From a virus (Duplodnaviria > Caudoviricetes), in IMG/VR virus record IMGVR_UViG_3300025401_000648: a DNA stretch of 64,000 nucleotides; one strand, written 5' to 3'. The translations under genes were made by a program, and so were the position numbers. A model generated the notes under the pieces. The model searched no databases. It was not told where the DNA came from and was given only the letters and a program-made list of their open reading frames with translations. This document shows positions 8,144 to 57,690 of this stretch, one piece after another; positions within the stretch are counted from its first letter, which is position 1; the number at the start of each line of letters is the position of its first letter.

Positions 8144-8158
8144 GTGTATAATAATATT

Positions 8159-9343
8159 ATGTATATAGAAGACCTAATTCAAGCTCTAGTATCTTGTCCA
8201 GCAAGGTTAAATTTGTGGGATCACAAAGTAGCCGTTAGCTTTTCTGACCAAATTTTTCAACTTACAGGGTTTACTGAAAAGCAAGCCGCTCTTGCTTTGA
8301 AGATTTTACAAAAACATACGGGTGCGCTATCTGCTTTTATGAATACCGATGTAAAACCACTTATTGAAAATCCAAAATACAGATTGACAATTAGAAAAAC
8401 CGTAACAGCTCGTAGTATTAAAATTATAGACCATGAAACTTTGAATAAATCTATTGAAGTTAAGTTTCCCTACGATGAATCATTAATAGATAAAATTAAA
8501 AAGTTCAAAAGTGTGGCTGGAAATACCGCAACTTGGGATAAAGACAGTACTGCCTGGATTTTTCCACTAAATGAAAATAATATCAGTTTTTTATCGTCAC
8601 TAGCATCTGATGTAAATTTTGATTTTGATGAAGATTTTCAAAAATATGTAGACGAGGCAGATAAAATTGTTAACGAAATGGAAAAATATGCTCCTACGTT
8701 AGCAATACATGACGGAGACTTAAAAATACTGAATTCTCCAAAAAATATGCCAGAAATTGATACCGACGATATCGTTGAAGCAATTTTCCAAGCAAGGAAA
8801 TATGGTGTTACACTATGGGATGAATATATCGACCAGTATATTTCCAGTGAAGAATTTGATCCTGTACTACGTGATTTTTTAAAAAATAATTACGCTTTTC
8901 CAACCCGGTTGAAAGCTGAAAATACCGACATTTTTTGTCTGGAACAGATCGTAAAATATCTATCTCCGTGTTTATTCATCATTCCTGGTGGAAATGAACT
9001 GGCTAAAATTACACAGGCACATACCCTACTAAAGGGTATGAATGTGGATAGTAAAAACATGAGTGTTTTGTTCAGATTATCGACAGAAAATGGGCGAAAT
9101 TTTAACGATTTTGTCAAAAATCAGGCAATAAATGGGCCAATTCATGACGATACTAAAATAGTGTTTGTTAGCGGTAAACTACCAAAAACAGTTATTAAAT
9201 CAGGAATTAAATTTAATAGTATTATTAACATGGGATATACCATGGCGCATTATACTCTTAAAGAATTCACAAAAAATCATCAAAATTCCATATATTTTGA
9301 TGTTAAAATAAAAGCACAGGGATTTGACTTTGACGACTTGTAA
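8159..9343 (+). CDS. Hypothetical protein with HARP-like segment
   Basis: VKFPYD..I.KIK...W...W segment resembles HARP-like domains; ATG 8159 lies 6 nt after a TTGAAG-17-TATAAT promoter. Confidence 0.55.
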   Translation: MYIEDLIQALVSCPARLNLWDHKVAVSFSDQIFQLTGFTEKQAALALKILQKHTGALSAFMNTDVKPLIENPKYRLTIRKTVTARSIKIIDHETLNKSIEVKFPYDESLIDKIKKFKSVAGNTATWDKDSTAWIFPLNENNISFLSSLASDVNFDFDEDFQKYVDEADKIVNEMEKYAPTLAIHDGDLKILNSPKNMPEIDTDDIVEAIFQARKYGVTLWDEYIDQYISSEEFDPVLRDFLKNNYAFPTRLKAENTDIFCLEQIVKYLSPCLFIIPGGNELAKITQAHTLLKGMNVDSKNMSVLFRLSTENGRNFNDFVKNQAINGPIHDDTKIVFVSGKLPKTVIKSGIKFNSIINMGYTMAHYTLKEFTKNHQNSIYFDVKIKAQGFDFDDL

Positions 9344-12280: not shown

Positions 12281-12467
12281 AGAATTATGGACTGTATCAG
12301 TAAATAAAAATCATGAAGTTTACATCGTGTCAGATGATCACACTCATGACATAACAATGAAGGTTGAAGGTACTTTTGTCGAACTAGATGACCTTGTTTG
12401 GTTTGCCAGCAATTTGGCAAGAAAATTAAACGGAACATTAAATGATAGCGTTGGTGAATCAGTCTAA
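12273..12467 (+). CDS. Hypothetical protein
   Basis: ATG overlaps upstream stop; 64 aa. Confidence 0.55.
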   Translation: MSKELWTVSVNKNHEVYIVSDDHTHDITMKVEGTFVELDDLVWFASNLARKLNGTLNDSVGESV

Positions 12468-13137
12468 TAAGTGCGCTCATTGTGGCAAGGCATTTGTACA
12501 AGAAAAAACTCTTGTGGCTCATATGTGCGAAAGAAAACGCCGTGCGCTTCAAAAAAATGAAAAGAGAGTACAAGCTGGCTACATGGCATTTAATAGATTC
12601 TGGCAGTTGGCCCAAGGCGGAAAAAAGCTCAAAACCTATGAAGAATTTTGTGATACTGCCTACTATAATGCTTTTGTTAAATTTGGTTCTTTTATAAACA
12701 ATACTAATCCACTATATCCAGACAAATTTGTTGACTATGTGATTAAAAGCGGAATCAAATTGGATCACTGGTGTAGAGACGACTTATACGAAAAATATCT
12801 GTATGACACAATAAAGACAGAGCCGGTGGAATCCGCAGTACAACGAACCATACAAAATATGATGGAATGGGCCGACGAACACAAAGCACAATTTGAACAT
12901 TATTTCAATTATGTTAGTTTAAACAAAGCAGTACATGATATTAGAAACGGCAATATTAGCCCGTGGGTAATTTTAAATACCAACACTGGTAAAAAAATGA
13001 TACAGACAATGAGTGACGAACAGTTGGATATGATTGCTCCGGCTTTTGATGTTCCGTATTGGTTAAAAAGATTTAAAGAAGTGCCAGCAGATGTTGCGCT
13101 GGTAAAAGAAATTTGCGAAGAGGCAGGTATTATATGA
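12442..13137 (+). CDS. Hypothetical protein with N-terminal C2H2-like zinc finger
   Basis: CAHCGKAF......HMC motif. Confidence 0.7.
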   Translation: MIALVNQSNKCAHCGKAFVQEKTLVAHMCERKRRALQKNEKRVQAGYMAFNRFWQLAQGGKKLKTYEEFCDTAYYNAFVKFGSFINNTNPLYPDKFVDYVIKSGIKLDHWCRDDLYEKYLYDTIKTEPVESAVQRTIQNMMEWADEHKAQFEHYFNYVSLNKAVHDIRNGNISPWVILNTNTGKKMIQTMSDEQLDMIAPAFDVPYWLKRFKEVPADVALVKEICEEAGII

Positions 13138-13493
13138 CACAATTAAAAGGATTAGTTCCAAAAGGATGGGGCTCGGAATATATTTGGGCTACCAATGACA
13201 AGTACTGTGGAAAATTTATGAACTTTAACACAGGTGCTAAGTTTAGCATGCACTTTCATAAAGACAAAGAAGAAACATGGTATATACAATCAGGCAAGTT
13301 TATTATCCGTTGGATTGATACTATTAACGCAGAAGTTTACGAAAAAGAAGTACATGACGGTGCTGTGTGGCATAATCCTCCATGTATGCCACACCAAATT
13401 GAATGCCTAGAAGCGGGTACTGTCATTGAAGTAAGTACTCCGGACTCTGTTGAAGACAACTATCGTGTGGGTAAAGGTGACAGTCAAAAATGA
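13134..13493 (+). CDS. Cupin-fold protein (sugar-isomerase-like)
   Basis: KGWG.E, SMHFH..KEETW, PHQIECLE. Confidence 0.8.
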   Translation: MTQLKGLVPKGWGSEYIWATNDKYCGKFMNFNTGAKFSMHFHKDKEETWYIQSGKFIIRWIDTINAEVYEKEVHDGAVWHNPPCMPHQIECLEAGTVIEVSTPDSVEDNYRVGKGDSQK

Positions 13494-14257
13494 AAATTTT
13501 AATCACAGGATATAAGGGATTTATTGGCCAAAATATGGTCAATGCGCTCAAAGATGAACATGAATTAAGTTTTTATGAATGGGGAGATCAAGTTCCAGAA
13601 TTTGAAGGTCTTGACTGGTGTATTCATCTTGGTGCTATCAGTAGTACCAACGAAAAGAATGTGGAAAAGGTCATGCGACAAAATCATGACTTCAGTTGTA
13701 TGTTGCTTGTGGCTTGCCAAATCAACAAGGTAAATTTACAATACGCATCCAGTGCCAGTGTATATGGCATGGGTCCAAACTTCAGCGAGGATGGCGAACT
13801 AAGTCCGCAAAGTCCTTATGCTTGGAGCAAATATTTGTTTGATAGACATGTCAAATCACAAAAATTTGACAACATTATTGTACAAGGGTTTCGATATTTT
13901 AATGTCTACGGTCCACACGAAGATCACAAGGATCAACCGAGCCCGCATCACAAATTTACCAAGCAAGCAGAAACAACTGGTGTGATTAAATTGTTTGAAG
14001 GTAGCGAAAATTTTAAACGTGATTTTGTGCCAGTGAGTGAAGTAATCAACATACACAAGAAATTTTTTGATGTTAAAGAAACTGGTATATGGAATGTGGG
14101 CACTGGCAAACCTCAATCATTTCAGCATATAGCAGAAACTATTGCTGAAGGTATGGAAGCACGGATTGAATATATTCCAATGCCTGATGATATCAAGTCA
14201 CAGTACCAAAAATACACCTGTGCCGACTTAACCAAGTTACGGAAATATTATCCATGA
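13490..14257 (+). CDS. hldD: ADP-L-glycero-D-manno-heptose 6-epimerase
   Basis: TGYKGFIG, YASSASVYG, YAWSK (YxxxK), FRYFNVYGPHEDHK. Confidence 0.85.
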   Translation: MKILITGYKGFIGQNMVNALKDEHELSFYEWGDQVPEFEGLDWCIHLGAISSTNEKNVEKVMRQNHDFSCMLLVACQINKVNLQYASSASVYGMGPNFSEDGELSPQSPYAWSKYLFDRHVKSQKFDNIIVQGFRYFNVYGPHEDHKDQPSPHHKFTKQAETTGVIKLFEGSENFKRDFVPVSEVINIHKKFFDVKETGIWNVGTGKPQSFQHIAETIAEGMEARIEYIPMPDDIKSQYQKYTCADLTKLRKYYP

Positions 14258-14655
14258 CCACGGTAATGGTTAACGGAACATTTGATATTTTGCATCCTGG
14301 ACATGTGGCGTTGTTAAACACTGCCCGTAGTTATGGTGATTATCTTGTTGTGGCAATAGACACAGATCGACGTGTTAAAGAACTTAAAGGCCACAAAAGA
14401 CCAATCAACAATCAAAATTTTAGACGTACTATGTTATCAAATCTTAAAGCTGTGGATGTTGTAGAATTTTTTGATAGTACAGAAGAATTAATTGAACTGA
14501 TGAAAATGTATAAACCAGATGTGTATGTCAAGGGTAGTGACTGGAAAACGGACACACAATCCACAGCACATCAATATTGTAAGGAAGTAGTTTATTATGA
14601 CAGAGTTGGCGACTATTCAACCAGCAAGATCATTCAAGATATTATTATTGGGTGA
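14254..14655 (+). CDS. hldC: Heptose-1-phosphate adenylyltransferase (RfaE domain II / HldC-like)
   Basis: NGTFDILHPGH (HxGH), KG..RPIN, YVKGSDW. Confidence 0.85.
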   Translation: MTTVMVNGTFDILHPGHVALLNTARSYGDYLVVAIDTDRRVKELKGHKRPINNQNFRRTMLSNLKAVDVVEFFDSTEELIELMKMYKPDVYVKGSDWKTDTQSTAHQYCKEVVYYDRVGDYSTSKIIQDIIIG

Positions 14656-15382
14656 CAGTTGTACTGACGAGTACTATATAGGTACTTGCGATAGACTAAA
14701 TCCCGAAGCACCTGTTCCCATTATGAATATTCGGGACCACTATACCACACCGGGTATGGCCAGTAATGTATATAAAAATTTAACCACATTAGGTTGCAAA
14801 GTTGATTTTATTACCAATGCGGAAACAATTACAAAGACACGTTACATTGATAAAAAATCTGGTCAACATTTATTAAGAGTAGATAATGACTGTGAACTAA
14901 CTCCCTGGAGTGGCCGCACTACACTACCTTTAGAAACTTATGATGCCATTGTAATGAGCGATTACAATAAAGGATTTTTAACATATTCAGAAATGCAACA
15001 TGTATGTAGATCGTTTGATGGCCCAATTTTTATTGACACCAAAAAAACAGACCTAAGACGATTTAATCCTGCTTTTATCAAAATTAATGAATTAGAATAT
15101 AGCAAACGAACTAGCGAAGCCAGTAATATGATTATTACTCTAGGTGGACGAGGTGCTATGTATAAAAAAGATTTTCTAACAGCGGTTTACGATGGATACC
15201 CTGCCGAAATAGTGGATGTATGCGGATGTGGTGATACCTTTTTATCAGCATTGACTTATCAATACCTAATGACAAAGGATATAGATAGTGCTATAATATT
15301 TGCTAATGCCGCGGCCAGTATCACAGTACAACACCGAGGAAATTATGCCCCAACATTGGACGAAATAAATGCCAGACATTGA
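14597..15382 (+). CDS. hldA: Heptose-7-phosphate kinase (RfaE domain I / HldA-like, PfkB fold)
   Basis: GD...DEY..G..RL.PEAPVP, SDYNKG, DVCGCGDTF. Confidence 0.85.
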   Translation: MTELATIQPARSFKILLLGDSCTDEYYIGTCDRLNPEAPVPIMNIRDHYTTPGMASNVYKNLTTLGCKVDFITNAETITKTRYIDKKSGQHLLRVDNDCELTPWSGRTTLPLETYDAIVMSDYNKGFLTYSEMQHVCRSFDGPIFIDTKKTDLRRFNPAFIKINELEYSKRTSEASNMIITLGGRGAMYKKDFLTAVYDGYPAEIVDVCGCGDTFLSALTYQYLMTKDIDSAIIFANAAASITVQHRGNYAPTLDEINARH

Positions 15383-15938
15383 TATCGATTTTGCCGATAG
15401 AACGCAGATACTTGATGTAATTAAACATGTACCAGCAACCATCGACGGAGTCAAAAAACACAATACAGGAATTTATGTACAGGAGATTCCAGTTAATCCA
15501 TTGACTGGACAATCCAGTATTGAATATAAGATCGCTGAAGCAAGGGGCTATTTTAAGATAGATTTTTTGAATGTCAGCATATATAAAGACATCAAAAATG
15601 AAGAACATTTAAACACATTACTATCAACGGAGCCATTATGGGATCTACTAGAACAAGAAGAATTCACGAATCTCTTATTTCACGTGAATGGTCACGGGCA
15701 CATCTTGAAGACGCTGAAACCGAAAACAATAGAAGAGCTCGCGGCCTGCTTGGCAATAATACGCCCAGCAAAAAAACACCTCTTAGACAAGAGCTGGAAC
15801 GACATATTCGCAGAAGTATGGACGAAGCCGACGACTGACGACTATTATTTTAAAAAAGCACACGCTGTGGCCTACGCAATGGCTATAGTTGTTCAAATGA
15901 ATTTGATCTGTGAGAGAATTAGCTACGAATACTCTTAG
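15369..15938 (+). CDS. Miniature DNA polymerase III alpha (DnaE)-like protein
   Basis: PDIDIDF, KHNTG, KIDFLN, LAIIRP, FKKAHAVAYA match DnaE motifs in order within 189 aa. Confidence 0.8.
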   Translation: MPDIDIDFADRTQILDVIKHVPATIDGVKKHNTGIYVQEIPVNPLTGQSSIEYKIAEARGYFKIDFLNVSIYKDIKNEEHLNTLLSTEPLWDLLEQEEFTNLLFHVNGHGHILKTLKPKTIEELAACLAIIRPAKKHLLDKSWNDIFAEVWTKPTTDDYYFKKAHAVAYAMAIVVQMNLICERISYEYS

Positions 15939-16302
15939 GAGTTCTAACCAGTTGAATTGATTTGCGTTTGATCCGCTTTTCCGCAATCTCTCTTAAATTA
16001 ACACTGGGTCCAAAGATTAGTTCAACATCTTTGCTGTTAAAAGTTTTAATGGTATACTTGAACAACTGCATTTGTTGTTTAAGGAAAATATTAATGGGAA
16101 TTCTACGATTGCTTTCCCACCACCAAGTTTCTCCCATTTCTAAAAAAAGCTGTCGTTCTGCGGAGGTTTTGATCAGTGAAATGTCGTAGATAGTGGCCAC
16201 GTATTCGTCAAAATTTATTATGATTCCGACATACTCTGTATTATTTGATTTGATACAGGAAACAAAGGGATAGTTTTCTTGGAAGGTTTCTGGGGTTACC
16301 AT
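15919..16302 (-). CDS. Hypothetical protein
   Basis: 127-aa ORF, divergent from 16320. Confidence 0.65.
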   Translation of the reverse strand: MVTPETFQENYPFVSCIKSNNTEYVGIIINFDEYVATIYDISLIKTSAERQLFLEMGETWWWESNRRIPINIFLKQQMQLFKYTIKTFNSKDVELIFGPSVNLREIAEKRIKRKSIQLVRTPKSIRS

Positions 16303-17372: not shown

Positions 17373-18371
17373 ATGAATGACATACAGTCGACTCTATTAA
17401 CATTACTGCCTCCAAAAAGAAAATCTACACCCAGTGGATGGACTAGCTTTGATGCTGTGTGTTGCCATAACAATGGAAATACTCGAGACACTAGAAAACG
17501 TGGCGGAGTACTAATAAATTCAGATGGCGGATTTCAGTATCACTGCTTTAACTGTAATTTCAAAGCGGGCTGGACTCCGGGCAAACTATTAAGTAAAAAT
17601 ACCAAAAATTTATTCAAGTGGTTGGGCCTATCTGAATCTGATATTGGCAAGTTAGGGTTGGCCGCTCTTAAAATCAAAGACGATCAACCTGTAATCAAAC
17701 GTCCGCTAAATTTTGTATTGGAAGAAAGACCGCTACCTGATGATTGTTTATCCATCGATACCTGGGTAGCAGAAGATTGTCAAGATCCAGAACTGCTGGC
17801 TGTAATTGAATATATTGTATCAACTCGCAAAATGTCTTGGGATTGGTATGATTGGCATTGGAGTGCCACCCCCGGTTATAGAGACCGTGTGATTATTCCG
17901 TTTTATCATGAAGGTAAAATTGTGGGTTATACTGGGCGCAAAATAACAGACGGTAAGCCCAAGTATTTGACTGATGCTCAACCAGGATATGTGTTCAATA
18001 TAGATGCTCAGATCAACAATAGGCAGTATACTATAGTTGTAGAAGGACAGTTTGATGCTATTGCTATTCAAGGATGTGCTATAGGTCATAATGAGCCTAA
18101 CGAAACTCAGATCATGCGGATTAACGCATTGAATCGTGAAGTTATAGTTGTGCCAGATCGAGATCGCCCAGGTGCCAAGATGATAAAAACAGCCATTGAA
18201 CAAGGATGGAGTGTGAGCTTGCCCCCTTGGGAAGATGACATCAAGGATGTGGCTGATGCTGTAAAAAGATATGGAAGACTGTATACCTTAACCACAATTT
18301 TAAAGTACAAAGTGTCAGGCGAGATAAATTTACATCTATTAAAGAAGAAACTAGAGAATGTCGAAGAATAA
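17373..18371 (+). CDS. 61: DNA primase (gp61-like)
   Basis: Zn-binding C..C..N...HCFNC, RVIIPF, YTGR, TOPRIM VVEGQFDA and PDRD. Confidence 0.88.
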   Translation: MNDIQSTLLTLLPPKRKSTPSGWTSFDAVCCHNNGNTRDTRKRGGVLINSDGGFQYHCFNCNFKAGWTPGKLLSKNTKNLFKWLGLSESDIGKLGLAALKIKDDQPVIKRPLNFVLEERPLPDDCLSIDTWVAEDCQDPELLAVIEYIVSTRKMSWDWYDWHWSATPGYRDRVIIPFYHEGKIVGYTGRKITDGKPKYLTDAQPGYVFNIDAQINNRQYTIVVEGQFDAIAIQGCAIGHNEPNETQIMRINALNREVIVVPDRDRPGAKMIKTAIEQGWSVSLPPWEDDIKDVADAVKRYGRLYTLTTILKYKVSGEINLHLLKKKLENVEE

Positions 18372-19806
18372 ACAACCAAAACCCAATTACGATTACAACA
18401 TGCAACGGCTCTACTTGGAAATGTTTCTAAGTGATGCTGAAACTTTTATCAGATGCCAAAATATTTTTGATCCTGAAAACTTTGATCAAAAATTACAAAC
18501 AGCCGCTGAATTTATTACCAAATATGTAGATGAATATAAGGTCATGCCTGAAGTCAGTATTGTTAATGCCAGTACAAGAAGTGACTTTGCCTCAGTGACT
18601 TTGGAACGTGAAAACTATGACTGGCTGTTAAATGAATTTGAGCAGTTCAGTAGACACAAAGGCTTAGAGCGAGCAATTATTGCTTCTAGCGATTTATTGG
18701 AAACTGGTGATTATGGCCCAGTGGAAAAATTGATCAAAGATGCTATACAGGTTAGCCTTAGCAGAGACATGGGCACTGACTATTTTGCTGATCCTAGAAG
18801 CCGACTGAGCAAGCTCAAAGACAATAATGGACAAATTAGCACAGGATGGCCCAGCATTGATAAGAAATTGTATGGTGGATTTAACCGTGGCGAGTTGAAT
18901 ATTTTCTGTGCTGGATCAGGTGGCGGTAAGAGTTTGTTCTTGGCCAATATGGGTGTTAACTGGGCCTTGGCCGGATTAAATGTTATCTACTTGACATTTG
19001 AATTGAGTGAAGGCTTGGTCAGTATGCGATTAGATAGTATGACTACTGGCATTAGTACTAGAGACATTTTCCGTAACATTGATGATGTGGAACTCAAGGT
19101 TAAAATGCTGGAAAAACGCAGTGGACACCTACAAGTTAAGTATATGCCTAGTGGTAAAAATTGTAACGATATTCGGGCCTATTTGAAGGAATATCAGATC
19201 AAAACAGGGGTAAAACCAGACGTTTTACTCATAGATTACCTCGATTTAATGATGCCTTTGTCAGTGAAGGTAAGTCCCAGCGATTTGTTTGTTAAAGACA
19301 AATATGTGTCAGAAGAGATTCGTAATTTGGCCATGGAAACACAATGTATTACGGTAACGGCTAGTCAGTTGAATCGTAGTGCTGTGGAAGAAATTGAGTT
19401 TGACCATAGTCATATTTCGGGTGGTTTGAGTAAGATCATGACAGCAGATAACGTGATTGGTATCTTTACAAGTCGTGCTATGAAGGAACGTGGACGCTAT
19501 CAAATCCAGTTTATGAAGACACGTAGTTCAAGCGGTGTGGGACAAAAAGTTGAATTAGAGTTTAACTTGGATACATTACGCATTACTGACTGTGAAGAAG
19601 AACAGGAAGGCAGTTTTAATCAACAGCGTCAGAACAGTCCATCAAATAGTGTTATTGATGGGCTAAAACGTACTAGTCAAGTCAGCACTAGCACTGAACG
19701 AAGTGATCCTAAAGAAGGCTTTGATTTTAGTAAGTTGCCCAAGCCGCGGACAAATGCTCCAGCAATTAGAAGTATGATCAGTAGTCTAAATCCAGAAAAG
19801 GATTAA
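18358..19806 (+). CDS. 41: Replicative DNA helicase (gp41/DnaB-like)
   Basis: ISTGW, Walker A GSGGGKS, FELSE, IDYLDL, TASQLNR, K.R. Confidence 0.92.
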   Translation: MSKNKQPKPNYDYNMQRLYLEMFLSDAETFIRCQNIFDPENFDQKLQTAAEFITKYVDEYKVMPEVSIVNASTRSDFASVTLERENYDWLLNEFEQFSRHKGLERAIIASSDLLETGDYGPVEKLIKDAIQVSLSRDMGTDYFADPRSRLSKLKDNNGQISTGWPSIDKKLYGGFNRGELNIFCAGSGGGKSLFLANMGVNWALAGLNVIYLTFELSEGLVSMRLDSMTTGISTRDIFRNIDDVELKVKMLEKRSGHLQVKYMPSGKNCNDIRAYLKEYQIKTGVKPDVLLIDYLDLMMPLSVKVSPSDLFVKDKYVSEEIRNLAMETQCITVTASQLNRSAVEEIEFDHSHISGGLSKIMTADNVIGIFTSRAMKERGRYQIQFMKTRSSSGVGQKVELEFNLDTLRITDCEEEQEGSFNQQRQNSPSNSVIDGLKRTSQVSTSTERSDPKEGFDFSKLPKPRTNAPAIRSMISSLNPEKD

Positions 19807-22161: not shown

Positions 22162-23619
22162 TCAATGATAGTTAATGGTTGTGCGGTTAAAAAATAACCC
22201 GTATACTAGTATTATTACACCAAAAGCAAGCAGACACAAACTAATTGGATGATGCAGGAGATCTTGAAATTTATACAGTGCCAAAAATTGCCCTGTGGTT
22301 AGTTCCAATCTATGACTAAGAGTAAAGCCTATGATAAAACTGATCCTACTGATTTTGAAATATTTAAAACATAGTCCCACTGCGGTCATTATGGACAATA
22401 TGGCATAATCCTCCCAGCCGCCTGTATAGTCGACGCAGGACCAAACAATCAAGGCAATCAAAGGGGCCGCCCAATACTTAAAGGGCACACGGGTTATTGC
22501 TGTGGCATATTTTATGAACGCTATACTGATAAAAAATGTTAGAACCAAACTTAGCATGAAACCAAAACTCAAGGCATCAAAAAATTTGTGATTTGACAGC
22601 AGTGTTTGGCTTCCTAGATCCAATCCCACATAGGCCAGTAGGCTCATAACCACTGCTTCAAAAGGAGCCGCAGGTACACCAAACAATACCGTGGGCACAT
22701 AGGCAGTGGCCTTTTGAGCCAGTGTGGCACCCTCAGGACCAATTACACCTTTGACATTGCCTGATCCAAAAGGCATGGTTTCATTTTTGTTTGTGGCCAC
22801 AGTTTGTCCATAGCTTAACCAATCCACAATAGCCCCGCCTATACCAGGCAGTATACCAATTACCCCACCTATGATTCCACCTCTGACACTGATCCATCGG
22901 TTCGCCCACCAATCCCCAAATCCTTGTCGTATTTGTAGCCAATTATCTTGAGATGACTGTAGGTATGTGGTTTTAATTCTAACAGCGTTTATGATTTCAG
23001 GCAGTGCCATCAACCCTGCCATGACTGGAGCAAATTGTATACCATCGGCTAGATAAAACCAGCCACCAGTAAATCGTTCAGCGTTAGTCACAGGATCAGT
23101 ACCAATCGATCCAGCAAATATACCCAATACCAGTCCCAGTATACCTCTTGCCCAATACTGACTGCTTAAGAAACAGATGCTGGTAACAGCCAAGATTAAA
23201 AATGCCCACTGTTCAGGTATACCAAAACTCAACACCACATTGGCATAGTAGGGCAATAGTAAAATAGTTAACGTTCCCCATACTACGCCCTGACTCACTG
23301 AACTAAACACACTGGCACTCATGGCTCTGGCAGCTTCACCGCGTTGAGCCATGGGATATCCATCCACCATGGTGGCAGCACTACCCCCGCCTCCTGGTAT
23401 GTTCATGACCACACTGGCAAACAGATCGCCCACACTGGCTGATACAACCACGGCAGTGGTAAACACAATAAGACTGTAGGGGTCGCCTCGGAAATAGGAT
23501 ATAAAACTATAGATAGTCAGCAAGGCTGTGCCGGCACCTGCCACAGGAATAATGCCAAACACAAATCCATATAGAGTGCCCAATAACAGCCAAGGTGTAT
23601 ATTGAATTACAAAGTCCAT
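22162..23619 (-). CDS. tctA: Tripartite tricarboxylate transporter permease TctA
   Basis: Polytopic; IPGGGGSAATMVDGYPMAQRGEA, GTDP, GILPGIG, GVIGPEGA, LFGVP. Confidence 0.88.
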   Translation of the reverse strand: MDFVIQYTPWLLLGTLYGFVFGIIPVAGAGTALLTIYSFISYFRGDPYSLIVFTTAVVVSASVGDLFASVVMNIPGGGGSAATMVDGYPMAQRGEAARAMSASVFSSVSQGVVWGTLTILLLPYYANVVLSFGIPEQWAFLILAVTSICFLSSQYWARGILGLVLGIFAGSIGTDPVTNAERFTGGWFYLADGIQFAPVMAGLMALPEIINAVRIKTTYLQSSQDNWLQIRQGFGDWWANRWISVRGGIIGGVIGILPGIGGAIVDWLSYGQTVATNKNETMPFGSGNVKGVIGPEGATLAQKATAYVPTVLFGVPAAPFEAVVMSLLAYVGLDLGSQTLLSNHKFFDALSFGFMLSLVLTFFISIAFIKYATAITRVPFKYWAAPLIALIVWSCVDYTGGWEDYAILSIMTAVGLCFKYFKISRISFIIGFTLSHRLELTTGQFLALYKFQDLLHHPISLCLLAFGVIILVYGLFFNRTTINYH

Positions 23620-37269: not shown

Positions 37270-37344
37270 TGGCGCCGTGGATGGGACTCGAACCCACCTG
37301 ATACTGATAGACAATCAGTTGCCCTCCCCGAGGACTACCACGGC
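37270..37344 (-). tRNA. trnD: tRNA-Asp(GTC)
   Basis: GCCGTGG acceptor stem, ACTGA-TTGTCTA-TCAGT anticodon arm, TTCGAGT T-loop, encoded CCA. Confidence 0.92.
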
Positions 37345-40053: not shown

Positions 40054-40131
40054 TGGTGGGCCGTCTTGGAGTCGAACCAAGCACCAATGGATTATGAGTC
40101 CACTGCTCTAACCAACATGAGCTAACGGCCC
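40054..40131 (-). tRNA. trnI: tRNA-Ile2(CAT) (lysidine type; Met less likely)
   Basis: GGGCCGT acceptor stem, GTGGA-CTCATAA-TCCAT anticodon arm, A73-CCA; resembles bacterial Ile2 rather than fMet/Met. Confidence 0.85.
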
Positions 40132-50325: not shown

Positions 50326-53310
50326 ATGACTATTTTATCACACAACACCTACGATTCAATACAAACAACTGCTAGTATGGTATTGTCTTCGTACTATGGA
50401 AATGCTATACAATCATCTGTAATCAGCGCAGGTGCTTCAATTAAAACATCAGATTGGACCAAACTTTATAATGATTTGGATGCTTGTCTAACTCACCAAA
50501 CAGGCAATCATGTGGCATTTCCCTGTATCACTACTGGTAGTATTATCCGACAGGTGTTTGTAAACAGCCTAACCAATGTGGCCAGCACTGTATATGCCAA
50601 TCGATCTAATGCCATTAACACTCAGTTGACATCACAGCCTACTACCTCTGTTAGAACCACAACCTGGGGCAGTGATATAGCACACCGAGTTGAATACAGT
50701 TGGAACTCTGTTGGCGATGTGGCACACTTTTTTCAAACTGGTGGATATATAGTTCCAAGTTTGGCCATAGCAGTTAATAATCTAAGTAACACACTTAATA
50801 TCAATTGGTCGCAGTTGATTACCAGTACCTACAATGACTTTAATTTTCAAAATTATATCTTTGATTTGGCCACGTATCTTAATCCCCCAGCGGCCTACGT
50901 AAACAACAATATCAATATAGGCACTATCACTGTAACCTATACATTTACCACACCAACAACATTGGTAGCTTCAATAGTATTTCATCCGGAAGGGGACTAT
51001 CTATCAATATTGGTATTACCCACCGCAGGGTTCACTACCTACAAATCCAGTGGAGCTGTATACGCTCCGGCAACCAGTGTTCAATTAATTGAGACATTGG
51101 ATGTGGGTGGTGCCTCACTGTATCCTTCTTTATATTTCCATCCAATCGCAGCCAATACTGTAAACCAATTGAGCACCGGCACAGTGTCTGTTCTAGTTAC
51201 CAACAGCGGCACTGGATACTGTTCAATCAGTAATCTATTGTTTACACCAGATCCCGCAAGCAATTTTACCACATACCATATCAGTATCAGCACAGCCACC
51301 ATACAGGCAGGGGCATCTGCCACTTTGACTCTACAGTATGGTACTACCAATTCTGCGCAAGGCACGTACAACAACAATTCTATCACAGTAGTCAGCAACA
51401 ATGTTAATGGAAATGCCAGTGCCACATTCCAAAGCATAGTTACATTTCCCATCTTTGCTGTCAATATCAGTCCAGCTACATTGACTAGTACCTTGACCAC
51501 TAGTAATGCTGTGATACAAAATTTTGCCTTCAGCGCCGGAGCATCTGGTGTTGTCCAAAGTATCACTGCTAGTTTGACCACAAACACAAACTTTGGTCTG
51601 TACCTTAGTCAGCCTATGGATACCCCAGAAATCATATATGTAGAAAGTTTTGGTGGATTTTTTGGTGGGTCGGATTTTGTTATCAATGTCATACCTTCAA
51701 AACATTTTCCTGGCAGCATCAGCACAGTGTTTACACCACCACTGCCAGCCATAAACTATTCAAATACAGCCAGTACTGTGCCACCACCCACATCCATCAC
51801 TGGTAACTACCCTACACAATTACTGGCCACATTCAATCCGGTGGACAATAGACAAACTCCTGTATTTGTTTCAATACCAATAGATTATACGTTGAACATA
51901 CAAAATCAACATCTGGGTAGTTGGTTGAGTCCTCGAGACTATACCAATGCCATAGCAGGGTTCAGTTATGATGTTATAGAAGGTCAAAAATATCTAACCA
52001 TAGGGTTTGGCATGGGTGGTGATGGTAGTCCTGAATTATACAATAGTGGTACAGCCTTTGTATCTGCTAGTACATTAGGAATTGGTGCTGATGTCAAGCC
52101 TGGAGCAGGTATTGCTCTTTATCCTTCTACAACTGGCACAAACTATGGTTCATTTTTACAGACATACGGTGCTTGGATCACACCTAATGGTGGTAATGGA
52201 TACAACACAGATCTAATTGTGGATTATGAATTTTTTGTTCCGACTAGTGGGACTTATAATTTTGAGTTCAGTGCTGACGCGACTGGACAATTATCTATCA
52301 ATGGAGTGTTGGTAGCCGATTGGTCAGATCCTACTAGTTCGATTACTGGATATACTAATCTAGTAGCAGGCATAAACACAGCCACTATTATATCTAATGC
52401 CTATGCCAATACCAATAATCAATCATTATACGCAAGTGGTGGAGCATTAAGTAGTAGTACTGTGGTCTATATTGGGCCCGTTTACGAAACAAAAAATAAT
52501 ACCACAACTATTATCTCAGGAACTTCTAGTAGCGGACTCGGTAGTTTTGGCGTAACAATCAGTGATTTTGGCGGTACAGTGTGGTGGAGCACACTAACGC
52601 CACAACGTCCTGCCCTTCAGCCAGCCTATGAGTTTTGGGGAGAAGTTTACAGAATTCCAATTTCAGGAGATGCTCGCACATACAACAGTGGTGATTATCC
52701 TGTTAAACTAACAGACTTTGCTGGTGGAAGAACCTATGGTAGTTTTTGTGGCACGGGTACTAATGCTGGTTCTGCGTTTACAATTATTGATGATGGCAAC
52801 GGTAATTTGAATGTAACATTCAATCCCTGGCCGGCAACAGCTTCAACAGGATTTTCAGCAGTTGATATAACATTATCCCTATTCCAATATCTACCATACT
52901 ATTATGAAAATATTCTAGCACGTATTTTAAATTTAGAAGCTCCGTTTGATAATGCTCAATACACACATTATTTTACGGGATTTGGCAATGATGGTGCTGT
53001 AAGAACCAGTACAGTGCCGTTTCCAAATCCCATAGTAATAAATGGTGTTCTAGCTGTGGCAGGGGTAGGTGGCACACAACATCTATCATTTTTACAAACT
53101 GCTGTACAAGACTTGATTCAGGTAGGTACTATTGCCTTAGAAGTAGGCGGCGCCGCTGTGGGAATCACAGCATTGGCAATCGCAGCCGGACTTACTGACG
53201 CTATTGGAGCCACGGTAGGCATTGCAGCCGTCACTGGTGGTTCTATCGCAGGTGGTATTGTAGGAGCCGCTACAACTGTTATTGAAGTACTATCATTCTG
53301 TGGCTTTTAA
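50326..53310 (+). CDS. Large virion/tail protein with PA14-like module and hydrophobic C-terminus
   Basis: T/S/N-rich; FVPTSGTYNFEFSAD..G.LSING..V; Ala/Gly/Val/Ile C-terminal helices. Confidence 0.65.
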   Translation: MTILSHNTYDSIQTTASMVLSSYYGNAIQSSVISAGASIKTSDWTKLYNDLDACLTHQTGNHVAFPCITTGSIIRQVFVNSLTNVASTVYANRSNAINTQLTSQPTTSVRTTTWGSDIAHRVEYSWNSVGDVAHFFQTGGYIVPSLAIAVNNLSNTLNINWSQLITSTYNDFNFQNYIFDLATYLNPPAAYVNNNINIGTITVTYTFTTPTTLVASIVFHPEGDYLSILVLPTAGFTTYKSSGAVYAPATSVQLIETLDVGGASLYPSLYFHPIAANTVNQLSTGTVSVLVTNSGTGYCSISNLLFTPDPASNFTTYHISISTATIQAGASATLTLQYGTTNSAQGTYNNNSITVVSNNVNGNASATFQSIVTFPIFAVNISPATLTSTLTTSNAVIQNFAFSAGASGVVQSITASLTTNTNFGLYLSQPMDTPEIIYVESFGGFFGGSDFVINVIPSKHFPGSISTVFTPPLPAINYSNTASTVPPPTSITGNYPTQLLATFNPVDNRQTPVFVSIPIDYTLNIQNQHLGSWLSPRDYTNAIAGFSYDVIEGQKYLTIGFGMGGDGSPELYNSGTAFVSASTLGIGADVKPGAGIALYPSTTGTNYGSFLQTYGAWITPNGGNGYNTDLIVDYEFFVPTSGTYNFEFSADATGQLSINGVLVADWSDPTSSITGYTNLVAGINTATIISNAYANTNNQSLYASGGALSSSTVVYIGPVYETKNNTTTIISGTSSSGLGSFGVTISDFGGTVWWSTLTPQRPALQPAYEFWGEVYRIPISGDARTYNSGDYPVKLTDFAGGRTYGSFCGTGTNAGSAFTIIDDGNGNLNVTFNPWPATASTGFSAVDITLSLFQYLPYYYENILARILNLEAPFDNAQYTHYFTGFGNDGAVRTSTVPFPNPIVINGVLAVAGVGGTQHLSFLQTAVQDLIQVGTIALEVGGAAVGITALAIAAGLTDAIGATVGIAAVTGGSIAGGIVGAATTVIEVLSFCGF

Positions 53311-56241: not shown

Positions 56242-57690
56242 ATGAACAATCACTGCCTAATACTGAGCTCCAAGCACATTTATGACCACGGTAGAAATGT
56301 TGGTGCTTATAGCATAGCTTCTCATTTAAGAAGGAATGGATGGGATTGTACGGTTGTGGATTATTTTCTACAATGGAAACAATTAGAACTTATTGAGTAT
56401 TTAGAAAAACATATTACTAATGATACCAAGTGGGTTGGAATTTCTTACACATGGTTGTTCAATCAACGAAATACCAATGAGGCACTACCCACCATACATA
56501 ATCTAATTCAGAACATAAAGAAAATTAATCCTAATGTATTGTTGATAGCTGGTGGACAGAGTCCTTACGAACAAGACCTAGGTGTTGACTATTATATCTA
56601 TGGGTATGCTGAACATGCCATACTTAAGATATTGGATTATGAGTTTAATGATGGCGCCCCTGTATTTTACACAAAATTATTTGGAGGCAAATTAGTTGAT
56701 GCCATGCATAACTATGCGTCTTACAATCTACCAACCTATACAATAGACTACGAAGATACTGATTTTATTTCTAAGGGAGATGTACTTAGCGTAGAGTTTA
56801 GTAGAGGTTGTAAATTTAAATGTGACTTTTGTACATTTCCTTTTATAGGTATCAAAGAGGATACATCAACTTCTGAAGAACTGCTGTATAGAGAGTTAAT
56901 GACCAATTATCACACATGGGGTGTCAAAACCTATATTGTCGCAGATGAAACAGTCAACGATAGAATTGAAAAATTAATCAAGATTAAGAATGTGGTAAAC
57001 CGCTTGGACTTTAAACCAGATTTTACAGCTTTTGCTAGAGTAGACTTATTTAGAAGTCACCCCGAGGCAATTGAACTCATGGCAGAATGTCGTATTTGGG
57101 GACATTATTATGGGGTTGAAACATTTAATCAAAAATCTGGTAAAGTCATTGGCAAGGGTCAAAATCCTGAATACATAAAAGAATCATTACTTAAAGTCAA
57201 AGATTATTTCCAAAAGAATTTGGGGCAATATCGAGGTACAATAGGTATGATTTGTGGCTTACCGCACGAATCACTTGATAGCCTTCGTGAGTCATACAAG
57301 TGGCTAGTGGAAAACTGGAGTGATCAAAACGTCATTTGGTGGCCACTACAAATTGTTGATAACGGTAATTTATCAGCAATGGGTAAAGATTTTGCTAGTT
57401 ACGGATACAAAAAATTAGATGTAAACGCAAACACTCACAGATTATCAACCCTGGCATTGAACAATACAGAAATCTATTGGGAAAACGAATATACCAACAT
57501 ATTTGAAATTGATGAACTTATCCAAACAGAATTCACTCATAAATTCTATTTTGATAATTTTAAACTTTGGTTTTTGTTGCCTTACGCAGAATATGAAAAA
57601 TGTAAAAACTATCGAGATGGCGATGTCTGGGCTAATCTAGTACATCAAGCCAAAATACAAGAATACATCAATAATAAAAAACATTCTTGA
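56242..57690 (+). CDS. Cobalamin-binding radical SAM enzyme
   Basis: N-terminal B12-binding-like domain (GAYSIASHL, IAGG), SRGCKFKCDFC (CxxxCxxC), YGVET, MICGLPHE. Confidence 0.85.
   Translation: MNNHCLILSSKHIYDHGRNVGAYSIASHLRRNGWDCTVVDYFLQWKQLELIEYLEKHITNDTKWVGISYTWLFNQRNTNEALPTIHNLIQNIKKINPNVLLIAGGQSPYEQDLGVDYYIYGYAEHAILKILDYEFNDGAPVFYTKLFGGKLVDAMHNYASYNLPTYTIDYEDTDFISKGDVLSVEFSRGCKFKCDFCTFPFIGIKEDTSTSEELLYRELMTNYHTWGVKTYIVADETVNDRIEKLIKIKNVVNRLDFKPDFTAFARVDLFRSHPEAIELMAECRIWGHYYGVETFNQKSGKVIGKGQNPEYIKESLLKVKDYFQKNLGQYRGTIGMICGLPHESLDSLRESYKWLVENWSDQNVIWWPLQIVDNGNLSAMGKDFASYGYKKLDVNANTHRLSTLALNNTEIYWENEYTNIFEIDELIQTEFTHKFYFDNFKLWFLLPYAEYEKCKNYRDGDVWANLVHQAKIQEYINNKKHS

Follow-up and report, generated by a model that had tools for sequence, protein, structure and literature searches.

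The window, by which we mean the whole 64-kb stretch of viral DNA that was analyzed, contains an open and intact reading frame of 189 amino acids with an ATG start, referred to here as the C-half (Table 1). Its ATG and the stop of the pfkB-type kinase gene just upstream (14597-15382) overlap by 14 nt. Elsewhere in the window are a tRNA-Asp (GTC; 37270-37344) and a tRNA-Met (CAT; 40054-40131), both on the minus strand, as well as long ORFs that had no PHROG match at E <= 1e-5: 8144-9343 (399 aa), 22162-23619 on the minus strand (485 aa), 50326-53310 (994 aa), and 56242-57690 (482 aa).

Table 1. Genes and candidate features around the C-half (window coordinates)
Feature	Position	Strand	Remarks
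C2H2 zinc finger protein, 231 aa, N-terminal finger, PHROG 11058	12442..13137	+	Conserved upstream neighbor
Variable insert: cupin, NAD-dependent epimerase, cytidylyltransferase-like enzyme, pfkB kinase (ADP-heptose-type)	13113..15382	+	Overlapping genes
Sigma-70-like promoter candidate	15269..15297	+	ATGACA, 17-nt spacer, TATAAT, extended -10 TG; consensus match
Probable C-terminal half (Mg2+- and template-binding part), split minimal DNA polymerase III alpha	15369..15938	+	Candidate catalytic D3, D5, D65; finger motifs 129-135, 161-170
Convergent small ORF, 127 aa, PHROG 11637	15919..16302	-	3′ end overlaps C-half 3′ end by 20 nt
DnaG-type primase	17373-18371	+	Conserved downstream
DnaB-type helicase	18358-19806	+	Conserved downstream

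The promoter candidate lies in the 3′-terminal part of the kinase gene, 72 nt before the ATG of the C-half. It agrees with the consensus at 11 of 12 positions and is the best match in the region, where promoter-like matches are no more numerous than in shuffled sequence. If active, it might allow the C-half to be transcribed apart from the sugar cassette.

Gene order around the C-half is conserved except for the sugar cassette

Across 84 loci, the convergent small ORF was found near the C-half in 83 and the C2H2 protein in 79, and the primase and DnaB-type helicase lay downstream in 75 and 66, respectively. The four sugar genes stand beside the C-half in just 9-15 of the same loci, and in several loci without them the C2H2 gene directly abuts the C-half. 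Because the sugar genes occur in so few loci and the C2H2 gene abuts the C-half elsewhere, the cassette is best regarded as a clade-specific insert and not as a functional partner.

The convergent ORF encodes a protein with an invariant WWWESNR motif and a basic C-terminal tail that is modeled with low confidence. Its model had a pLDDT of 83. A Foldseek search of the PDB found nothing like it at E <= 0.001; in VIA-align, which compared it with 48,161 chains, Z reached at most 4.0, and the matches were scattered ones to small barrels of the Sm/SH3-like type.

The C-half is homologous to part of the catalytic core of DNA polymerase III alpha

The polypeptide starts exactly at the PDxDxD motif. 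Residues 1-13 align to positions 413-425 of M. tuberculosis DnaE1, the first eight (MPDIDIDF) being identical, and residues 52-135 and 157-172 align to positions 568-664 and 773-788, with all segments collinear. As a single sequence searched against the PDB with phmmer, the C-half reached a best E of 0.64, which is without significance by itself. A profile of 84 homologs reached an E of 4.5e-5 against solved Pol III alpha chains, those of E. coli, T. aquaticus, and M. tuberculosis, placing K63 and D65 of the C-half on E. coli K553 and D555, and FKKxHAxAYA on E. coli 756-765. PHROG 11778, annotated as "DNA polymerase", matches the C-half at E 8.3e-68, residues 3-183 of the protein covering positions 8-194 of the 197-position profile. 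A Pfam search with the C-half alone gave just one sub-threshold match, to a finger domain.

D3, D5, and D65 are the homologous counterparts of D401, D403, and D555 of E. coli, reportedly the metal ligands of Pol III alpha (Pritchard and McHenry 1999; Lamers et al. 2006). Much of the rest of DnaE is missing. The protein begins at the equivalent of E. coli residue 400 and has no Pfam match to a PHP domain, and it shows no counterpart of the thumb, the clamp-binding region, the OB domain, or a large part of the fingers. Also missing from this polypeptide, and not noted in the initial annotation, is the N-terminal palm segment, which holds the GRGS nucleotide-binding loop.

Sequence identity is 40-55% to the versions in cultured phages and 65-88% to metagenomic and IMG/VR sequences, with which the C-half forms a large uncultured clade. 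In GenBank the relatives are labeled "DNA polymerase", "DNA polymerase III alpha", or "DnaE-like DNA polymerase III alpha". A megablast search of the phage collection with 6 kb of the window gave no match.

An AlphaFold2 model of the C-half built from the 84-sequence alignment had a mean pLDDT of 96.3 and a pTM of 0.88, and C-family polymerases fill its top 17 Foldseek matches in the PDB. In VIA-align, residues 1-187 of the model superimpose on residues 461-841 of Taq Pol III alpha (3e0d) with a Z of 9.6 and an rmsd of 3.8 A over 185 residues, and residues 1-186 on 400-781 of the E. coli enzyme (2hnh) with a Z of 8.7. The Z for PolC (3f2b) was 9.5, and that for the best non-polymerase chain was 3.8. 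About 185 residues of the C-half thus cover 380 residues of DnaE. Both the thumb and around half of the fingers have been deleted; gaps are also visible in the profile alignment.

Several features reported in the initial annotation are confirmed by these results, namely that the frame is intact and overlaps the kinase gene, that the DnaE motifs are real and in order (in the DnaE1 alignment, the 84-homolog profile, PHROG 11778, and the fold), and that PHP, much of the fingers, thumb, clamp-binding, and OB regions are missing, the alignable segment ending near E. coli 781. The comparison of a predicted structure with DnaE, which had been put forward as a check, also came out in favor of this homology.

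The remaining part of the palm is encoded by a second, distant gene in related phages

When genomes of relatives were searched with PF07733, the C-half homolog was missed and a second locus was matched, over model positions of about 13-98. This N-half locus was present in all four cultured reference jumbo phages (Phosso, PAC2, Atu_ph07, and RaK2) and in three of five long IMG/VR contigs searched, which we call G002 (100% complete), G003 (71%), and G004 (58%); G002 alone among the five is rated at least 90% complete, and in the other two (43% and 39% complete) PF07733 gave nothing above the family cut-off. The N-half ORFs are about 165-175 aa long, contain a GVGRGSS loop, and have a C-terminal end of the form ...EFLK or ...EFLR. 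This end is the point where DnaE runs into PDxDxD, and it is there that the window ORF starts with MPDIDIDF. The split point was identical across 49 distinct N-halves. The N-half corresponds to PHROG 11127, and on the full-length DnaE profile the N-half and C-half occupy positions 358-429 and 582-678, respectively.

Counted by genus in the phage collection, C-halves and N-halves numbered 34 and 34 for Escherichia, 11 and 11 for Pseudomonas, 11 and 10 for Klebsiella, 8 and 8 for Salmonella, 8 and 8 for Erwinia, and 4 and 4 for Xanthomonas, the N-half search additionally finding full-length DnaE genes of unrelated phages. The two genes are 33-224 kb apart in relatives, and 136 kb apart in G004. 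A tblastn search of the window with two N-halves gave nothing below E 1. The nearest record, a 38-kb fragment called G001, carries a C-half 99% identical to that of the window and has no N-half, and none of the 80 N-half contigs listed comes from the metagenome of this fragment (3300013093). Judging from its relatives, the window's own phage probably encodes an N-half, which would lie beyond the 64 kb in which none was found.

The surroundings of the N-half differ from those of the C-half. Within 3-kb flanks, a tail-fiber-like gene lies upstream in 79 of 80 loci, and a small protein of PHROG 14844 together with a GroES-like head-morphogenesis gene lies downstream in 75. Within the same distance, a clamp-loader subunit was found in 54 of the 80 loci and a cytidylyltransferase-like gene in 31. 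G004 has the sugar cassette at its C-half and, some 1.6 kb downstream of the N-half gene, a second cytidylyltransferase-like gene (PHROG 7878; L103:4633-5094); both the cassette at the C-half and the extra transferase at the N-half are missing from G002 and G003.

A natural fusion and a predicted interface join the two halves

A 375-aa protein, P0229 (L183:1066-2193), contains an N-half at residues 13-181 (E 8e-22) and a C-half at residues 189-370 (E 1e-35), separated by a linker of about 7 residues, and its match to PF07733 positions 12-121 is continuous across the junction. It is encoded on a 2.4-kb metagenome contig of unknown origin, where it is followed by a convergent small ORF, as in the window. 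This natural fusion shows that the two halves make up a single unit. P0229 is also a potentially convenient construct for biochemistry.

For co-folding, the C-half of the window with its alignment was paired with the N-half of G004, the closest long relative, whose own C-half is 73% identical to that of the window. The ipSAE was 0.91 in all three runs and 0.00 in the best of three controls, a result which, because the halves belong to a family with solved structures, may mirror their likeness to DnaE and is not taken as separate evidence that they bind. For comparison, 58 of 80 solved complexes and 2 of 110 mismatched pairs reach the mark that was applied. The three runs had at least 98% of their contacts in common, with a partner pLDDT of 85-87. 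In the predicted interface, the C-half strand that includes D3 and D5 (residues 2-9) pairs with residues 162-165 of the N-half, next to the GRGSS loop. Such a pairing would look like the completion of a polymerase-beta-like sheet.

The initial annotation had proposed that the ORF encodes a repurposed minimal nucleotidyltransferase, possibly linked to the nucleotide-sugar operon. A self-sufficient enzyme of this kind, working with the adjacent heptose and nucleotide-sugar genes, would be in keeping with the overlap between the C-half and the kinase gene, with the arrangement of sugar and transferase genes at both loci of G004, and with the cytidylyltransferase-like genes near a minority of N-halves. 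We nevertheless consider it very improbable, as so few C-halves adjoin sugar genes and the C2H2 gene is found upstream elsewhere, and as the retained finger motifs are of the DNA polymerase type. The GS loop, which binds the triphosphate in enzymes of the polymerase-beta fold, sits with the first part of that fold on the N-half, leaving the C-half without part of the active site, so that a stand-alone transferase is unlikely. The strict co-occurrence of the halves and their natural fusion point instead to one two-part enzyme. What stands of the earlier proposal is a minimal, DnaE-derived core under selection; its self-sufficiency does not, and a second DnaE half elsewhere, named at the time as the observation that would count against it, is present in relatives. 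The suggested tie to the sugar operon falls with the distribution of the cassette.

The C-half is conserved at its catalytic positions in a large family

Residues D3, D5, K63, D65, and P133 are invariant in 84 representatives that share 29-88% identity, and D7, H31, G34, R132, K135, K162, and H165 are nearly so. Of the 85 copies recovered from the window, from IMG/VR contigs, and from reference phages, every one is intact, with lengths of 187-213 aa. Median pairwise dN/dS values (Nei-Gojobori, NG86) were 0.13-0.18 across divergence bins, and the C-half is evolving under purifying selection. The retention of three catalytic aspartates reported earlier is thus upheld, and neither relaxed selection nor loss of these residues, either of which had been expected if the proposal was wrong, was seen.

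A C-half homolog is present in 96 jumbo-phage records, with a query coverage of at least 80% in 94, and in more than 541 IMG/VR loci. The family comprises at least 8000 clusters at 90% identity, many of them named "DNA polymerase III alpha subunit" by JGI, and 435 clusters at 50% identity. Its hosts range from alpha- and gammaproteobacteria through uncultured freshwater hosts.

These observations bear on the idea that the C-half is a decaying or non-catalytic remnant of a full-length phage DnaE, kept as a structural or regulatory protein. Most DnaE domains are indeed gone, and the phages have a complete family B polymerase. The low dN/dS, the intact frames in a narrow length range, the invariance of the three aspartates and K63 over so wide a range of identity, a split point that is identical across hundreds of loci, and the thousands of clusters in metagenomes all speak against decay, and we regard it as highly unlikely. 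That the protein is a decoy binding host Pol III holoenzyme subunits (beta clamp, tau, or epsilon) and shutting down host replication, an interference also raised in the initial annotation, has nothing beyond homology to the host enzyme in its favor and is scarcely credible, since the model ends near E. coli 781 and the protein has none of the DnaE regions to which these subunits bind (PHP for epsilon, the part beyond about residue 920 of the E. coli enzyme for beta, and the C-terminal domain for tau), and since a decoy would not need catalytic residues that are invariant despite a wide host range.

A two-part mini-polymerase probably assists a family B replicase

We consider it very likely that a minimal polymerase of the C family (Pol III alpha-like), which group 2.2 jumbo phages encode in two pieces, has its C-terminal half encoded by the window ORF. 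The homology, fold, residue conservation, purifying selection, split in relatives, natural fusion, and predicted interface were computed here, and from them we infer assembly in vivo, catalytic activity, and a role at the replisome. The C-half would bring two beta-strands bearing the putative metal-binding aspartates D3, D5, and D65, along with a reduced finger module (IRPxK and FKKxHAxAYA) of the kind that contacts the template and the incoming nucleotide in DnaE. The separate N-half of about 170 aa, encoded far off in the genome, would give the earlier part of the polymerase-beta-like fold with the GRGS triphosphate-binding loop. The halves most likely join non-covalently and without an intein, completing one beta-sheet, and together they would form a nucleotidyltransferase core, about 360 aa in size, that lacks PHP, thumb, clamp-binding, and OB domains.

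As the retained finger motifs are those that contact template and dNTP in DnaE, templated DNA synthesis is suggested, and an enzyme without thumb, clamp-binding, or OB domains is predicted to be of low processivity. The most likely activity would be short-patch, low-processivity, template-directed addition of dNMPs. A T4-like family B polymerase co-occurs in all four reference phages; none was found among the ten long window ORFs scanned. Given the family B replicase of the relatives, the role of the mini-polymerase is probably auxiliary: it might extend primers, synthesize one of the strands, or take part in repair. The loss of the thumb and of about half of the fingers could also have ended templated synthesis. 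In the paper library, neither half was the subject of a biochemical or genetic study, and the literature consisted of one comparative paper from 2021 and genome announcements.

A more specific possibility, which we hold only tentatively and think somewhat unlikely, is that the two halves, about 360 aa together, make up a functional C-family polymerase without a thumb, the smallest known, that acts in the replisome as a primer-extension or lagging-strand enzyme and hands off to the family B replicase. A parallel is found in Bacillus, where DnaE hands off to PolC. If this were so, the siting of the halves near the primase-helicase and clamp-loader genes would reflect the hand-off, and the heterodimer would be a working model of an ancestral Pol III core.

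The family is of interest as a C-family polymerase cut to its bare catalytic core, as a split without an intein within an active-site fold, and because thousands of jumbo-phage genomes combine it with a family B replicase (checked in the four reference phages). A fitting annotation for the window ORF would be "C-terminal subunit of split minimal Pol III alpha", with an N-half elsewhere in the genome as its partner and no link to the heptose genes. At stake are whether so small a core can polymerize DNA and what part a second polymerase plays in the replication or repair of jumbo phages.

Comparison with known C-family polymerases

The split minimal Pol III alpha of group 2.2 jumbo phages was described by Iyer, Anantharaman, Krishnan, Burroughs, and Aravind (2021, Viruses 13:63, PMC7824862, sections 3.4.1 and 3.5), who likewise proposed an auxiliary role for it. 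The window ORF is an ordinary member of this already published and widely annotated family, in which the C-terminal unit is PHROG 11778 and the N-terminal unit PHROG 11127, and examples of which are RaK2 ORF124, Atu_ph07 gp074, the PA5oct and PAC2 homologs, and Phosso gene 437. It resembles them in its length, its PDxDxD start, its invariant aspartates, and the lack of PHP, thumb, clamp-binding, and OB domains. The synteny is shared as well, running from the C2H2 gene through the C-half, the convergent small ORF, a virion protein, and the primase to DnaB. The clade of the window differs from the cultured phages of this family in having the heptose-type sugar cassette directly upstream of the C-half.

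With bacterial DnaE and PolC (2hnh, 3e0d, 5lew, and 3f2b), the C-half shares the polymerase-beta-like palm strands with three acidic residues and the finger motifs RPG and FNKSHxxAY, with structural alignment Z values of 8.7-9.6. It is about 190 aa long, however, whereas the bacterial proteins have 1,100-1,400 aa, and it lacks their PHP, thumb, beta-binding, OB, and tau-binding domains and about half of their fingers. The bacterial palm is formed by one chain, whereas in relatives of the window phage a different polypeptide carries the N-terminal palm segment and its GS loop.

In cyanobacteria, DnaE-N and DnaE-C are a split-intein protein, joined by protein trans-splicing. The jumbo-phage enzyme is similar in that a C-family polymerase would be made from two distant genes, but its split lies inside the palm, before the catalytic motif. 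A split of the intein type was rejected, because the EFLK/R and MPDIDIDF termini abut directly and leave no room for intein fragments; the short linker of P0229 likewise leaves no space for one. Pfam scans of both halves found polymerase domains only, and no Hint/intein domain.

The full-length DnaE of group 3.2 jumbo phages, phage G, and Bacillus and Clostridium phages (PHROG 405) has a homologous catalytic core, and PHROG 405 matches both halves weakly. These polymerases are host-like and unsplit, retain PHP, and serve as the sole replicase, whereas the mini-enzyme accompanies a family B replicase.
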